DNA of 64,000 bases from NCBI GenBank assembly GCA_045632145.1, contig JAZQWB010000015.1, forward strand, positions 64,643-128,642, read 5' to 3'. The notes below the pieces were generated by a model. It ran no database searches. It was not told the origin of the DNA and saw nothing but the letters and a program-made list of their open reading frames with translations. This document shows, one piece after another, positions 35,293 through 37,303 of this stretch (the first letter of the stretch is position 1; every line of letters begins with the position of its first letter). Source of the stretch: Eubacteriales bacterium (lineage in GTDB: Bacteria; Bacillota; Clostridia; Oscillospirales; CAG-272). The translations under genes and the position numbers were made by a program.

Positions 35293-35367
35293 ATCGGCTC
35301 CTTTCAATCGTTTTCTCTATTATACCTCATCAGGCTTTTATTTGCAATAGCATATCACAAAAATCTA

Positions 35368-35396
35368 TTGACAAACCCCAAGGTCTTTGCTATAAT
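35368..35396 (+). promoter_or_regulatory. Consensus sigma-A promoter upstream of tRNA-Pro
   Basis: TTGACA (35368-35373), 17 nt spacer, TATAAT (35391-35396). Confidence 0.6.
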
Positions 35397-35485
35397 AATA
35401 TAGCACAAATCGAGACGGTACAGGTCTCGACGCGCAGACAATCAGCGCCAAGCAAAACGAAGAAAAGCCAAACAAAAGAATTAAT

Positions 35486-35561
35486 CGAGGTGTAGCGCAG
35501 TTGGTAGCGCGCCAGTTTCGGGTACTGGAGGCCCGGAGTTCGACTCTCCGCACTTCGACCA
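35486..35561 (+). tRNA. tRNA-Pro (anticodon CGG), CCA encoded
   Basis: Manual cloverleaf fold:
- acceptor stem cgaggtg/cacttcg
- D stem gcgc/gcgc
- anticodon stem ccagt/actgg with loop ttCGGgt
- variable loop aggcc
- T arm cggag-ttcgact-ctccg
- discriminator A, then CCA
Total length is 76 nt. Confidence 0.9.
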
Positions 35562-35736
35562 AAAAGCAGAAGAGAGTCCTTGTGGCTCTCTTTTGTTTTT
35601 TGTCGGTGTGGATGATGAGAACTCCGCTCTGCGCAGCAGAATGGGGTTCGCATATCGAACCCGAAGATCGACAAGCTTGCTTGTCAGGCGCAGGGGAAGA
35701 TATCTTCGCATAGCGAATACCTCCGCACTTCGACCA
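35562..35736 (+). repeat. tRNA-linked repeat unit 1 (terminator-like hairpin, ~135-nt core, exact copy of the tRNA-Pro 3' 16 nt)
   Basis: Hairpin 35571-35591 followed by a T-run. ctccgcacttcgacca at 35721-35736 is identical to 35546-35561. Confidence 0.85.
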
Positions 35737-35916
35737 AAAAGAGAAAAGGTCACCGCAAGGGTGACCTTTTTTCTTTTTCGTTGGTGTGAATGGTGCGAAC
35801 TTCACTCGTGCGTAGCGCGAAGGAGTTCGCATATCCCTTACGGAGATCGACAAGTTCGCTTGTCAGGCGAAGTAAGAGGATATCTGCGCACATCGAATAC
35901 CTCCACACTTCGACCA
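35737..35916 (+). repeat. tRNA-linked repeat unit 2
   Basis: Hairpin 35746-35768 followed by a T-run. The core is ~75-80% identical to unit 1. ctccacacttcgacca at 35901-35916 matches the tRNA 3' end at 15/16. Confidence 0.85.
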
Positions 35917-35929
35917 CAAGACTTTAGTG

Positions 35930-37303
35930 TTATATAGTCTTAATAAACCTTTTATAGAATACCACGCACTCGCCGATATTCTTGATACCGATATGCTCGT
36001 TGGCATTATGAATGGTGGCAAACTGTGCCTTGGAAAGGTCGATGGGTGCAAAGCGGAGTATGTTATCCGCCACGTCGGTAAGACGTCTTGCATCTGTGCC
36101 TGCGGTAAGCAGGAAGGGGACAACGGCCACGTCGGGGAAGGTGTCGTGGAGAAGCTGCTCCACCGTTTTAAATGCCGCACCGTTAAAGTCGGTGGGCTTA
36201 CAGTAATCGCGCTCAAGCTCCTCTATCTCCACGCCGTATTTCTTGCCGATAGCCTTAATCTTCTCGAGACCGCGATAAAGGTCATCCTCTCTCACGCAAC
36301 GCAGAAACATTACCGCCTCTGCCTCCCTGGATCTGAAGGTAGGCTCGTTTACATCTCCTGCAAACACGGTCTGGAATCTGATGCTTGTTGAGAGCATGGC
36401 ACTTGCGGCAGGAATACCCATCATTATCTTCTTAATGAGGGGAGCAAAAATACCTATGTTACCGAAGAGTAAATTCATCGGGAAGGACATATAGGGCACG
36501 TGTCTTTCAAAGGTGGCCTTCACCTCGGGGTAGAATTTGCCCTTATAAATAGGTGTGCTGCTAACCTCGGCAATAAATCTGCTGATATTAAGTGCCGCGC
36601 TGTCTGCCGCTTTGCCAAATCCACCGTGGCCAAGCTGCTCGGAGTTTACTCTGCACTTAAAGTAGTGACGGCTCTTCTCGTGCACGGCAACAACGGCACT
36701 CTTGCACTTTACACCGGGAATCTGTCCCTCTGTAATAGCACCGCCCTCGTCAAGAACAACGTCAAAATGAATACCGTTTTCCTTAAAATACTCGGTAGCA
36801 AGGACCATACCGTCACCGCCAACCTCCTCATTGTCGGAGGATCCGATGTAGAGATTGATGCCCTCGAAGTCGTAGCCCTCGGAAAGAAGCTCCTCTGCTG
36901 CCTGAAGCTCTGCAAAGAGAGGGGTCTTGGTGTCAATGGTGCCTCTGCCGTAAAGATATCCGTCCTTCTCGGTGGCCTTGAAGGGATCGGTTGCCCATTC
37001 ATCACTTCCCTCCACAACGTCATGGTGGGACATAAGCATTATATTCTTGGTGGCATTCTTGCCCTCAATAACGTAAACGAAGCAGCCACTGCCAAAGGTC
37101 AATCTCTTGGCTACAGCGGTAAGGCTGGGAAAAAGCTCCTCTACTCTCTGATAAAACCTGTTAAACTCGTCCTTATTCTTGTGATCGCGTGTCCACACGG
37201 TCTTGCAGTCGATAAGGGCAGACAGCTTTCTTACGTACTCCCTGCTCTGCTCCTCGGAGACAGTGGGACGCTCGCTCTCGCTTCTAAGCTTGTAGTAAGC
37301 CAT
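35930..37303 (-). CDS. M20 family metallopeptidase
   Basis: 'IMLMSHHDVV', 'GRGTIDTK', 'SDNEEVGG' and the C-terminal 'HNANEHI'. Confidence 0.8.
   Translation of the reverse strand: MAYYKLRSESERPTVSEEQSREYVRKLSALIDCKTVWTRDHKNKDEFNRFYQRVEELFPSLTAVAKRLTFGSGCFVYVIEGKNATKNIMLMSHHDVVEGSDEWATDPFKATEKDGYLYGRGTIDTKTPLFAELQAAEELLSEGYDFEGINLYIGSSDNEEVGGDGMVLATEYFKENGIHFDVVLDEGGAITEGQIPGVKCKSAVVAVHEKSRHYFKCRVNSEQLGHGGFGKAADSAALNISRFIAEVSSTPIYKGKFYPEVKATFERHVPYMSFPMNLLFGNIGIFAPLIKKIMMGIPAASAMLSTSIRFQTVFAGDVNEPTFRSREAEAVMFLRCVREDDLYRGLEKIKAIGKKYGVEIEELERDYCKPTDFNGAAFKTVEQLLHDTFPDVAVVPFLLTAGTDARRLTDVADNILRFAPIDLSKAQFATIHNANEHIGIKNIGECVVFYKRFIKTI

Follow-up and report, generated by a model that had tools for sequence, protein, structure and literature searches.

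The two units that follow the tRNA-Pro(CGG) gene in the window (the whole 64,000-nucleotide stretch of DNA analysed) are cargo-less members of a large family of tRNA- and tmRNA-linked modules in gut Clostridia (Oscillospiraceae and relatives). The arms of these modules match whichever tRNA gene adjoins them, and the core between the arms is under selection for base pairing. The explanation that we prefer, and to which we give about an even chance, is a new RtT-type tRNA-linked module that spreads by recombination at the repeated tRNA end and probably yields a processed RNA.

The tRNA-Pro(CGG) locus and its two units

The sole tRNA gene detected in the window by ARAGORN was tRNA-Pro(CGG) at 35486-35561 on the plus strand, which scored 63.4 bits with the Rfam tRNA model. 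Two units of 175 and 180 bp lay 3' of it, each composed of a terminator-like hairpin and then a structured core of about 135 nt with a copy of the tRNA 3' end last. The initial annotation had listed six items (hairpin with T-run, core and tRNA-end copy, twice over), and all six were found in their places. Tandem Repeats Finder (TRF) reported the region as a repeat at 35591-35916 with a period of 179, 1.8 copies, 79% matches and a score of 431. The features were as follows.

35368-35396, plus strand: perfect sigma-70-type promoter, TTGACA, 17 nt, TG-TATAAT; 12/12 matches with TG extension
35486-35561, plus strand: tRNA-Pro(CGG) gene, CCA encoded (ARAGORN, Rfam)
35546-35566, plus strand: X, first direct-repeat copy, the last 16 nt of the tRNA and 5 nt of flank, CTCCGCACTTCGACCAAAAAG
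35562-35602, plus strand: terminator-like hairpin 1 (F-loop-F'), -20.8 kcal/mol, z = -5.6; A-tract before, T-tract after
35602-35612, plus strand: X' of unit 1, GTCGGTGTGGA; 5' strand of P1, pairs with 35720-35733
35619-35649, plus strand: P2 of unit 1; outer stem GAACTCCG/TGGGGTTC, inner hairpin CTCTGC-GCA-GCAGA, variable
35643-35650, plus strand: sense copy of tRNA nt ~50-57 in unit 1, GGGGTTCG (tRNA: GGAGTTCG); conserved core directly 3'
35651-35717, plus strand: conserved non-tRNA core of unit 1 (CAT, P3, P4); covariance model match at 35640-35729, 78.8 bits
35653-35703, plus strand: P3, long helix of unit 1; conserved internal loops CGAAGATC/AGGCGCAG, apical GACAAG-CTTG-CTTGTC
35705-35717, plus strand: P4, short hairpin of unit 1
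35721-35741, plus strand: X* of unit 1, CTCCGCACTTCGACCAAAAAG, 21 nt, 100% copy of tRNA end and flank; 3' strand of P1
35738-35782, plus strand: terminator-like hairpin 2, bidirectional in form, -24.8 kcal/mol, z = -6.6; T-run after
35782-35917, plus strand: unit 2; covariance model match at 35819-35909, 80 bits
35782-35788, plus strand: X' of unit 2, TGGTGTG
35797-35828, plus strand: P2 of unit 2
35822-35829, plus strand: copy of tRNA nt 49-57 in unit 2, GGAGTTCG
35830-35897, plus strand: core of unit 2; middle stem of P3 compensatorily CCCTTAC/GTAAGAGG, P4 degenerate
35901-35916, plus strand: X* of unit 2, CTCCACACTTCGACCA; 15/16 identical

The exact copy of the tRNA end extended 5 nt beyond the 16 nt first given to it, since the 21-nt CTCCGCACTTCGACCAAAAAG at 35546-35566 recurred in full at 35721-35741; a third copy (81%) was located at 35901-35921, and the spacings between copies were 175 and 180. 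Hairpin 1, the tRNA end and X' together formed a longer imperfect palindrome. The inverted repeat around hairpin 2 had 29-nt arms that took in X* of unit 1 and X' of unit 2, and this hairpin was also called as a minus-strand terminator. Two details of the initial annotation were revised. The 5' strand of the units, described as a degenerate copy of the tRNA 5' acceptor strand, was the reverse complement of the tRNA 3' end, X' of unit 1 being antisense to the 3' strands of both the T-stem and the acceptor stem. The T-arm-like ggagttcgcatatcc of unit 2 was not a T-arm hairpin; its GGAGTTCG copies tRNA nt 49-57, with atatcc forming the 5' strand of P3. The outer stem of P2 in unit 1 consisted of antisense and sense copies of the 5' part of the T-arm. 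The helices said to be shared by the two units were present (gacaag-CTTG-cttgtc versus gacaag-TTCG-cttgtc; gaactcc/ggggttc versus gaacttc/ggagttc), and both cores gave a closed multi-helix junction fold with z = -3.0 and -2.9.

The central motif (20 specified bases) was observed twice in the window when 0.04 occurrences were expected. A covariance model from relatives matched both units with E ~1e-23 and had no other match in the 64 kb. The Rfam models, applied at the gathering score and again at E <= 10, matched nothing but the tRNA and, by chance, hairpins, placing the units outside every family. The units also failed as tRNAs or tRNA pseudogenes: no cloverleaf was present, and the tRNA model gave no second match even at E <= 10. 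The promoter at 35368-35396 plausibly drives tRNA-Pro and, judged from its sequence, would be the sole plausible origin of plus-strand transcription into the units; no promoter-like site was found between tRNA-Pro(CGG) and the units.

Module arms match the adjoining tRNA gene

An exact-protein look-up of the nrdG-like gene of the window returned no record, and homologues were taken instead. The central hairpin motif was detected in at least 119 stretches of genome contigs from at least 94 assemblies, at least 93 of them of Clostridia type, and a metagenome scan added 47 further stretches. No motif match was obtained in viral contigs, GenBank phages or PLSDB plasmids. About 70% of the 152 scorable copies adjoined a tRNA or came after another unit: a same-strand tRNA lay within 150 nt upstream of 56 copies and at 151-400 nt from 14, a divergent tRNA-Ser was the neighbour of 22, and 14 were placed after another unit. 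Partner tRNA genes were of at least 15 types, and tmRNA genes stood upstream of units in at least three loci (L030, L051 and L101). A single MAG could carry units at several tRNAs, as did SIG718 at Gln, Pro-CGG and Pro-TGG. In L044 and L037, tandem units of 134-171 bp were nearly identical; in L120, the closest relative, unit 1 was present and unit 2 was absent. A motif-only match without the flanking features of the family was seen in one Enterobacterales MAG (L114).

Each module was headed by the terminator hairpin and then ran, 5' to 3', through X', the variable hairpin P2, a sense copy of tRNA nt 49-57, the P3/P4 core and X*. The conserved core, P3 and P4 together, measured about 85 nt and fell precisely at TTCG^A in the T-loop. 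X* comprised 8-23 nt of the tRNA from T-loop nt ~58 on and ran to CCA or beyond, the direct repeat passing CCA by 4-6 nt in some cases; in the commoner Gln, Ser and Met type it ended after about 11-12 nt, without CCA. The match to the neighbouring tRNA was specific. Alignment of X' with the reverse complement of the tRNA 3' end gave a mean score of 18.8 for cognate and 12.0 for non-cognate pairs, and the 9 nt before the core agreed with tRNA nt 49-57 at 8.2/9 positions in cognate versus 6.1/9 in non-cognate comparisons. X' alignments began at the complement of CCA in 19 of 42 cases, the longest matches reached 28 nt, and species-specific acceptor changes were mirrored in X'. At divergent tRNA-Ser genes, the core split the reverse complement of tRNA-Ser nt 1-18 exactly between CTTCG and ATA. 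In L037, the palindrome formed by X' and the terminator arm paired at 25 of 26 positions. The units had at first been taken for tRNA-derived structured RNAs; this holds for the shell and fails for the ~85-nt core, which is foreign to tRNA and common to at least 15 tRNA types and tmRNA.

The same arms could belong to a tRNA mimic serving as substrate or decoy for a synthetase, the CCA-adding enzyme, EF-Tu or a tRNA-targeting nuclease, which we consider very unlikely. The arms of a mimic would match the partner tRNA, since the acceptor stem carries identity elements; they do track the tRNA across species, and P1 reproduces its acceptor and T stems as one continuous helix, ending in ACCA in the Pro type. 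However, the units of the commoner type lack CCA, and truncated units were as conserved as complete ones, which points against a charging or binding role. The units also have no anticodon arm and no D/T elbow, with the core in place of the T-loop, and at tRNA-Ser their arms copy the tRNA 5' end reversed, an arrangement sensible for DNA and not for a mimic. Two other candidates were rejected. Reverse transcription primed by tRNA, with X' as the primer-binding site, was weighed on the grounds that X' opens with TGG and that the start of X* lies near nt 58; no reverse transcriptase was linked, the tRNA-Ser class uses the tRNA 5' end, and nt 49-57 are copied too. A T-box or riboswitch was ruled out because a downstream regulated gene and a model match were both absent.

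Core covariation and the comparison with E. coli RtT

Pairing was observed in 91.7% of cells in the core alignment compared with 82.2% in shuffles and 28-44% in slid controls. Two-sided changes occurred in 15 of 24 pairs, and the observed values were reached by none of 500 shuffles. The apical stem covaried too, and the internal helices noted at the outset proved real, covarying across about 80 relatives. These results bear on the possibility of a neutral event, in which the tRNA 3' region was duplicated locally and the units are decaying as a functionless pseudogene. The two units are just 79% identical, P4 of unit 2 is broken and its X* has one mismatch, all as such decay would have it. Against this, the core is not tRNA sequence, being ignored by ARAGORN and the Rfam tRNA model, it is conserved in at least 93 MAGs at many different tRNAs, and the 15 pairs carry compensatory changes. 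Family spread, tRNA linkage and covariation already contradict the duplication reading, which we regard as barely credible. Absence or lack of conservation in relatives and lack of compensatory changes, named in the initial annotation as signs of such a pseudogene, were clearly not what was found.

Plus and minus strands folded equally well in a comparison of folding energies over 98 non-redundant copies, and strand assignment by folding energy was dropped for want of a difference. The P3 tip was limited to CTCG, CTTG and TTCG, which are stable RNA tetraloop families. The tips of P4 were mostly C(NNA)G triloops, and GCGAAGC tip loops were also seen; C(NNA)G triloop hairpins are better known from stable DNA hairpins. 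An apparent mobile-element insertion right after CTTGTCAGG, present in four copies, was merely an extra 75-nt hairpin domain inside P3.

The closest analogue of the family is RtT of E. coli (RF00391, rttR), which since the late 1970s has been an orphan, a curiosity of a single operon. A likeness to the tyrT locus had been pointed out from the window alone, and it goes deeper than was described. In RtT and in the family, tandem units immediately follow a tRNA gene on their own strand and have at their end the tRNA sequence repeated from T-loop nt ~58 to CCA and beyond, while an antisense copy of the same segment lies upstream and forms a closing helix. Both have a copy of the T-stem 5' strand with TTCG(A), followed by 70-85 nt of foreign core rich in hairpins, the T-loop being split at the same place, and the unit lengths are alike (178 bp in RtT, 175-180 bp in the window). 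RtT is ordered as X' GGGGAAGGAT, then AAGGTTCGA, core and AATCCTTCCCCCACCACCA, and P1 in its Rfam consensus is the X':X* pairing. In the window, likewise, tandem same-strand units behind the tRNA had tRNA 3'-end copies last, 35602-35612 paired with 35720-35733, and the T-loop was split between TTCG(A) and A. In the K-12 annotation, rttR is a small RNA of 171 nt whose 5' end lies 7 nt downstream of tyrV and whose 3' end is at CCA of the first X*.

The core sequences of RtT and the Clostridia family are not alignable. The RtT model (gathering 45 bits) scored 134-138 bits on three E. coli units and had no match in the window, nor any at E <= 10 on 35300-36000. A terminator hairpin between tRNA and unit is missing from RtT, as is nearly all of the P2 insert, whereas the Clostridia family has both. 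To our knowledge, RtT is tied to tRNA-Tyr in enterobacteria; the Clostridia family, by contrast, adjoins tmRNA and no fewer than 15 types of tRNA gene and, in addition, stands at the borders of gene cassettes. No described equivalent had been known to the initial annotation, and literature searches found none. The RtT curiosity becomes a class open to comparative genomics, making testable the question of why antisense and sense copies of a tRNA end surround a conserved fold. For annotation, the units account for breaks in assembly and for spurious ORFs downstream of tRNA genes in MAGs from the gut; an RNA or DNA family model is warranted.

Under the preferred reading, recombination of X with X*, inside the tRNA-end segment that they repeat, would create copies and raise their number; the enzymes may be encoded elsewhere, or general recombination and replication machinery may be enough. 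A terminator-like hairpin with a T-run stood between each unit and the preceding tRNA or cargo gene, and no promoter was found in this interval, so that plus-strand expression needs read-through. Read-through from the strong tRNA promoter could give an RNA that is trimmed at the tRNA-like end, by analogy with what is documented for RtT. X' and X* would then pair into a continuous-helix copy of the partner acceptor and T stems that closes a four-way junction, and the conserved internal loops of P3 would be the likely binding surface for a putative factor. Several observations weigh against this explanation. Equal folding of both strands is unlike most sense-strand RNAs and counts against an RNA reading, X' often complements NCCA and flank that are missing from the X* in cis, which formation of P1 in RNA leaves unexplained, and the P4 triloops, the terminator-like hairpins ahead of the units and the absence of a linked recombinase tell in the same direction.

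Insertion behind tRNA genes and the alternative DNA readings

In L171, tRNA-Pro was followed by three units, and the last X* abutted AAAAGACCGTTTTTGACGGTC, which is the terminator directly 3' of tRNA-Pro in the unit-less locus L122. Because the array ends at the terminator of a unit-less locus, the module is a DNA insertion between the CCA of the tRNA and its native terminator, and it supplies the tRNA with a new terminator. Modules occurred singly, in tandem arrays or as boundaries of gene cassettes, including a complete Gabija system. Units stood between a terminator and the next promoter, and the ORFan and defence cassettes were all in one orientation. The 20 cargo and neighbour proteins scanned with Pfam and PADLOC were ORFans, HTH, GIY-YIG, GDPD, Gabija, SmpB and others, with no recombinase, reverse transcriptase or transposase among them. 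When 787 neighbouring ORFs from 119 loci were clustered, no recurrent family emerged as a partner gene, and no integrase, Xer-like, HUH, TnpA or TnpB gene recurred near these loci (chunks of <=8 kb). The window units themselves are without coding room for an integrase. The family marks small arrays of defence-gene cassettes behind tRNA genes and bears on how islets form without a local integrase. At this tRNA-Pro locus, the anticodon loop was also the site of other integrations.

Genomic islands offer one account of such a layout. The units would be remnants of integrase islands that target the tRNA/tmRNA T-loop, with X* as the displaced fragment (attR), the core as an attP arm and cargo-less units as deletion products; we think this improbable. 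Island ends are marked by a regenerated tRNA and a displaced 3' fragment in direct orientation (Islander, PMC4383910). The loci showed this arrangement together with the native flank (the 21-nt repeat; L171 compared with the empty L122). The use of tmRNA genes and many tRNAs, the start of the fragment in the T-loop, a direct repeat that can extend 4-6 nt beyond CCA, the defence cargo and the anticodon-loop integrations all agree with an island origin. Islander islands, tycheposon arrays and cis-mobilisable elements share with the family the intact tRNA, the displaced fragment, the native flank kept after the last fragment, tandem accretion and defence or ORFan cargo. However, no integrase was present in the arrays examined, and no tyrosine or serine integrase was found in the loci (<=8 kb chunks) or the 20 scanned proteins. 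Units as small as ~135-180 bp, near-identical in tandem in L044 and L037, a conserved folded core and an inverted target copy by the displaced fragment set the family apart from islands and satellites. An inverted copy, or a copy of nt 49-57 beyond an 85-nt insert, is unexpected of attP arms, and a site-specific integrase family leaves unexplained how one core has matched arms at at least 15 tRNA gene types. Covariation, moreover, reflects selection on folding and not on duplex protein sites.

Miniature IS200/IS605 elements (PATEs) resemble the family in having a core 3' of a fixed TTCG in one orientation, without target duplication, and in being made of hairpins. The family, in contrast, never occurred at ordinary TTCG sites, the examined members all lying inside tRNA/tmRNA arms as part of tRNA-derived palindromes, and no transposase recurred near the loci. 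Its hairpin-to-end distances presumably do not fit IS608 geometry either.

A serious rival to the processed-RNA module, although on balance we consider it rather unlikely, is a folded single-stranded DNA recombination site of the integron attC or CTX phage attP kind. The module would act as DNA, with X':X* in the single strand, or X*-F with F'-X' in a circle, rebuilding the duplex of the tRNA-gene 3' end and the conserved core protruding as a branch. A recombinase from elsewhere would exchange one strand with the tRNA gene, replication would finish the process, and RNA would be incidental. In CTX phage integration, the order direct, inverted, direct is expected for a hairpin site recombined with a duplex site. 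The order X ... X'-spacer-X* is the same, and the inverted arms rebuild the duplex target. Folding without strand asymmetry, the C(NNA)G and GCGAAGC tip loops, the complementarity of X' to the tRNA end through NCCA, continuing into the terminator arms as one long palindrome, and the position of units between terminator and next promoter as bounds of one-orientation ORFan and defence cassettes also favour a DNA site. As with attC and CTX attP, a duplex recombination site is rebuilt when imperfect inverted repeats fold, ORFs and hairpin sites form arrays, and structure is kept more than arm sequence. The likeness is of architecture only: the family arms mimic the tRNA gene end instead of a dif or attI core, the branch is strongly conserved in sequence, and no IntI or Xer link was seen. 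Several findings oppose a DNA site, such as the restriction of the P3 tip to stable RNA tetraloops and the annotation of RtT, the closest analogue, as a stable small RNA. The lack of a recurring integrase, Xer-like or HUH gene near the 119 loci or in the scanned cargo, the lack of motif matches in viral contigs, phages and plasmids, and a circle of ~175 nt, which is very small for mobile DNA, likewise speak against it.

A slightly less probable and tentative extension is that the modules and RtT are general, unrecognised elements that home to tRNA-gene ends via a folded single strand. If so, integron-like arrays of defence and ORFan cassettes would be built behind tRNA genes without a linked integrase, and a trans-acting enzyme or replication factor would use the conserved core as its handle. 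In the E. coli tyrT-rttR region under stress, coverage of exonuclease-resistant 'mobilome' DNA is raised, its cause unspecified, which fits the folded-DNA account.

Two tandem units behind tRNA-Pro(CGG)

The tandem layout that the initial annotation had described behind tRNA-Pro(CGG) was confirmed by the tRNA gene, the hairpins, the cores, the tRNA-end copies and the repeat call:

35486-35561, + strand: tRNA-Pro(CGG), sole tRNA gene in the window
35562-35602: hairpin 1 and T-run, right after the tRNA (-20.8 kcal/mol, z = -5.6)
Between hairpins 1 and 2: core 1, about 135 nt
35738-35782: hairpin 2 (-24.8 kcal/mol, z = -6.6), with the second core after it

Tandem Repeats Finder reported a repeat in the window with a period of 179, 79% matches and a score of 431. 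The sequence CTCCGCACTTCGACCAAAAAG, comprising the final 16 nt of the tRNA and five flank bases, recurred without mismatch at 35721-35741 and with 81% identity at 35901-35921, the tRNA-end copies being spaced by 175 and 180. The internal helices named in the initial annotation were present in the window units, a closed junction was predicted by folding for both cores (z about -3), and the middle of helix P3 was exchanged between units 1 and 2 in a fully compensated swap. When the units were checked against Rfam, tRNA was the sole family matching and no other family was found there, even at E <= 10. R1, a covariance model built from related units, detected the two units and nothing else in the window, at 78.8 and 80 bits.

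The search motif, matched exactly, comprised the central hairpin and the flanks of its loop, GATCGACAAG-NNNN-CTTGTCAGG. It was observed twice in the window (0.04 expected) and occurred in at least 119 stretches of a species-representative genome collection, a large family rather than a local accident. Among the matches listed, the stretches came from 94 assemblies; 93 of these were labelled Clostridia, Eubacteriales, Oscillospiraceae, Acutalibacteraceae or Ruminococcus, and most derived from the guts of ruminants and other animals. A metagenome scan gave 47 further stretches, and the motif had no match in viral contigs, phage records or plasmids. These copies were ascertained by the exact motif; R1, built afterwards, detected additional units, diverged in the core, in the same arrays. 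We conclude with high confidence that the window feature belongs to a family of RtT-type modules that is new and widespread, is linked to tRNA genes and is inserted at the tRNA end. One Enterobacterales stretch (L114) matched the motif alone and lacked the family features.

A perfect promoter was located upstream of tRNA-Pro, with the units on the + strand behind it. A leader of about 89 nt (35397-35485) separated promoter and tRNA; it started with TCGAG, resembling the first bases of the tRNA-Pro gene, and contained the hairpin TCGAGACGGTACAGGTCTCGA. The tRNA of L120, the closest relative, started a few bases past the -10 box without a leader, so that the window leader resembles a scar left when the tRNA 5' end was rearranged at an earlier time. 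Directly after unit 2, a small hairpin, AAGACTTTAGTG...ATAGTCTT (35918-35941), was found just beyond the stop of a convergent M20-peptidase-like gene (35930-37303, minus strand); the hairpin may represent the terminator of that gene or the native flank of the tRNA.

Arms, core and comparison with E. coli RtT

In an alignment of about 80 non-redundant units, the core was conserved and the arms were locus-specific. The 3' arm (X*) repeated the adjacent tRNA sequence, beginning in the T-loop at about nt 58, over 8-23 nt and sometimes reached 4-6 nt beyond CCA. The 9 nt preceding the core corresponded to tRNA nt 49-57, matching the cognate tRNA at 8.2/9 and other tRNAs at 6.1/9 (4.3/5 versus 2.5/5 for the T-stem strand by itself). 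When the T-loop started with TCCG instead of the usual TTCG (GGTCCG; L043, L068), the adjoining units showed the identical variant. The 5' arm (X') had been taken for a copy of the tRNA 5' strand; it was instead the reverse complement of the tRNA 3' end, with local alignment scores of 18.8 against cognate and 12.0 against non-cognate tRNAs. Its alignments began at TGG, the complement of CCA, in 19 of 42 cases, and some extended 28 nt through the T-arm. The core was positioned in the T-loop of the sense copy (TTCG^A), and the antisense copy lay upstream, separated from the sense copy by a variable hairpin (inner P2). X' and X* formed the closing helix P1, and the two T-arm halves formed outer P2. 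X' was nearly complete, including NCCA, and X* shortened in the Gln/Ser/Met subtype; in the Pro subtype, window included, X* was complete and X' partial. It is very improbable that a unit serves as a decoy for tRNA enzymes.

Units adjoining a divergent tRNA-Ser followed the same logic, their arms matching tRNA-Ser nt 1-18 in reverse complement and their core splitting this copy at CTTCG|ATA (identities of 7-8/8 and 9-10/10). The copy co-varied with the tRNA-Ser of each species. Between tRNA-Ser and unit (L022, L025, L032, L057, L106 and others) lay a conserved palindrome whose centre, GATGCAACAGCGTGCATC, was invariant and whose outer arms covaried; it overlapped the position that the tRNA-Ser promoter must occupy, and a decayed copy followed the unit.

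Covariation was tested on A3, a core alignment of related units, with a structure that we specified and 500 shuffles. Pairing was found in 91.7% of the cells versus 82.2% after shuffling, and both sides changed in 15 of 24 pairs. The covariation score was 0.284 versus 0.115, a value reached by 0/500 shuffles, and pairing fell to 28-44% once partners were slid. Ten of the 11 P3 pairs had compensatory changes. The core is selected for folding, and a neutral pseudogene is scarcely credible as an explanation. Variation in the apical stem was frozen by the search motif; this stem covaried in a model-found unit (GGCGAG-CTTG-CTTGCC). P3 was diverged in some units, and a sub-family of four copies carried an extra hairpin domain of about 75 nt (TAGCGAAGCGG...GACATCACAGTGTGATGTC...) on the 3' side of the P3 internal loop:

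L041, 6615-6790
L075, 1590-1770
L091, 3137-3309 (minus strand)
L115, 821-1040

RtT was read from the E. coli K-12 tyrT-tyrV region (L175; NC_000913.3 1286600-1287340), where the 178-bp unit contained:

Element 1: GGGGAAGGAT, reverse complement of tRNA-Tyr ATCCTTCCCC
Element 2: antisense T-arm, decayed
Element 3: AAGGTTCGA, copy of the T-stem 5' strand plus TTCGA
Element 4: non-tRNA core of about 70 nt, with many GCA/GAA-loop hairpins
Element 5: AATCCTTCCCCCACCACCA plus about 20 nt of flank

The T-loop was split at TTCGA|AATCC, and the direct repeat reached about 20 nt beyond CCA. The RtT consensus in Rfam is closed by exactly the X':X* helix, as in the Clostridia units, and the annotated rttR small RNA begins 7 nt downstream of tyrV and ends at the first X* with its CCA. 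The cores were unrelated in sequence. However, the matching element order and T-loop split position indicate the same plan in two phyla, and the analogy to RtT was right in a stronger sense than first proposed. A preprint reports that exonuclease-resistant DNA coverage over tyrT-rttR was raised under stress.

Insertion at tRNA gene ends and cargo

Linkage was counted in 152 copies with enough upstream sequence among the matches listed. A same-strand tRNA gene ended within 150 nt upstream of 56 copies and was 151-400 nt away from 14; another 14 stood in tandem behind another unit, 22 adjoined a divergent tRNA-Ser, and 46 were without a tRNA inside 400 nt. Some of the last were directly downstream of tmRNA (ssrA; L030 6260-7304, L051 3869-4666, L101 3927-4523), and in others cargo genes intervened between tRNA and unit. 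In L030, the tmRNA gene and the unit were separated by a gene encoding a 23S rRNA intervening-sequence protein. The partners were Gln(CTG, TTG), Pro(CGG, TGG), Ser(GGA, CGA, TGA), Arg(CCT), Met, Cys, Glu(CTC, TTC), Tyr, Val, Thr and Gly, and several different tRNAs bore units within single MAGs.

In L171, a relative of the window locus, tRNA-Pro(CGG) was followed by three units, the final X* being CCTCCACACTTCTACCA, then AAAAGACCGTTTTTGACGGTCTTTTTTCATTG. The same terminator directly followed the tRNA in the unit-less L122 (...CTTCGACCA|AAAAGACCGTTTTTGACGGTCTTTTTCATTG), indicating that the array sits between CCA and the native terminator. Each unit supplied a terminator for whatever preceded it. 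L120, whose nrdG was 91% identical, carried a copy of unit 1 (about 95% identity) but lacked unit 2, and its downstream gene differed; the arms of its unit were no longer matched by its tRNA allele. A regenerated gene with a displaced fragment is a known signature of tRNA-gene integration (PMC4383910). Judged by these sequence comparisons, the units are DNA insertions.

Half tRNA-Pro genes ending in the anticodon loop (...TTTCGGGTACT| and ...TTTCGGGT|, then unrelated DNA) were observed in L122/L123, upstream of nrdG, and in L124/L125, indicating that a further element inserts at this tRNA's anticodon loop and that the locus is a recombination hotspot. In L122, a second, complete tRNA-Pro of a different allele came after the unrelated DNA. 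L126 and L127 carried, some 280-600 nt upstream of nrdG, another type of tandem repeat (about 290 bp) whose copies each open with tRNA-Pro nt 1-18, CCGGGTGTAGCGCAGTTG; it represents a second class of tRNA-linked repeat, one joined to the tRNA 5' end.

In arrays behind tRNA-Gln (L019, L082, L091) and in Cys-type arrays (L118, L036), units alternated with a promoter and small ORF, a terminator and unit following every ORF. A 178-aa ORF in L118 was flanked, at 95% identity, by a 269-nt block made up of a terminator, a unit and some 85 nt more. Cargo mostly had no Pfam match; XRE-type regulators and a GIY-YIG nuclease were also found. A complete Gabija system (GajA 1e-212, GajB 1e-171) lay directly upstream of a unit (L049 3242-7098, minus strand), and other units adjoined a DUF4379/CapR-like protein, HTH + DUF4145, or GIY-YIG + HTH. 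That the units are remnants of classical islands seems improbable. No recurrent protein family was found among the neighbouring ORFs of 119 loci among the matches listed, and no recombinase among the 20 cargo/neighbour proteins scanned.

RNA-level and DNA-level readings

We give about an even chance to modules that are propagated through recombination within the repeated tRNA segment and also yield a processed structured RNA. The RtT precedent, the + strand position behind a perfect promoter, the terminator after each unit, the restriction of the P3 tip to CTCG, CTTG and TTCG, and the conserved purine-rich internal loops favor an RNA product. The main rival, that the module is a folded single-stranded DNA recombination site, is possible but rather doubtful. 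Consistent with a DNA-level role, a terminator also stands before each unit with no promoter between, and folding is equally good on both strands. X' is complementary to NCCA and runs on into the terminator arms as a single palindrome, a complementarity superfluous for an RNA closing helix. The direct, inverted, direct order would, by analogy, agree with folded hairpin att sites; the tRNA-Ser class tracks DNA sequence rather than tRNA sense, and cassettes are bounded by units. The antisense arm requires a DNA-level origin under either reading, and the RNA and DNA layers are compatible, not exclusive.

Spurious ORFs crossed units (e.g., window 35593-35937, + strand, 114 aa). Many genome-contig and metagenome copies were located within a few hundred bases of contig ends, so that the units probably break short-read assemblies behind tRNA genes.
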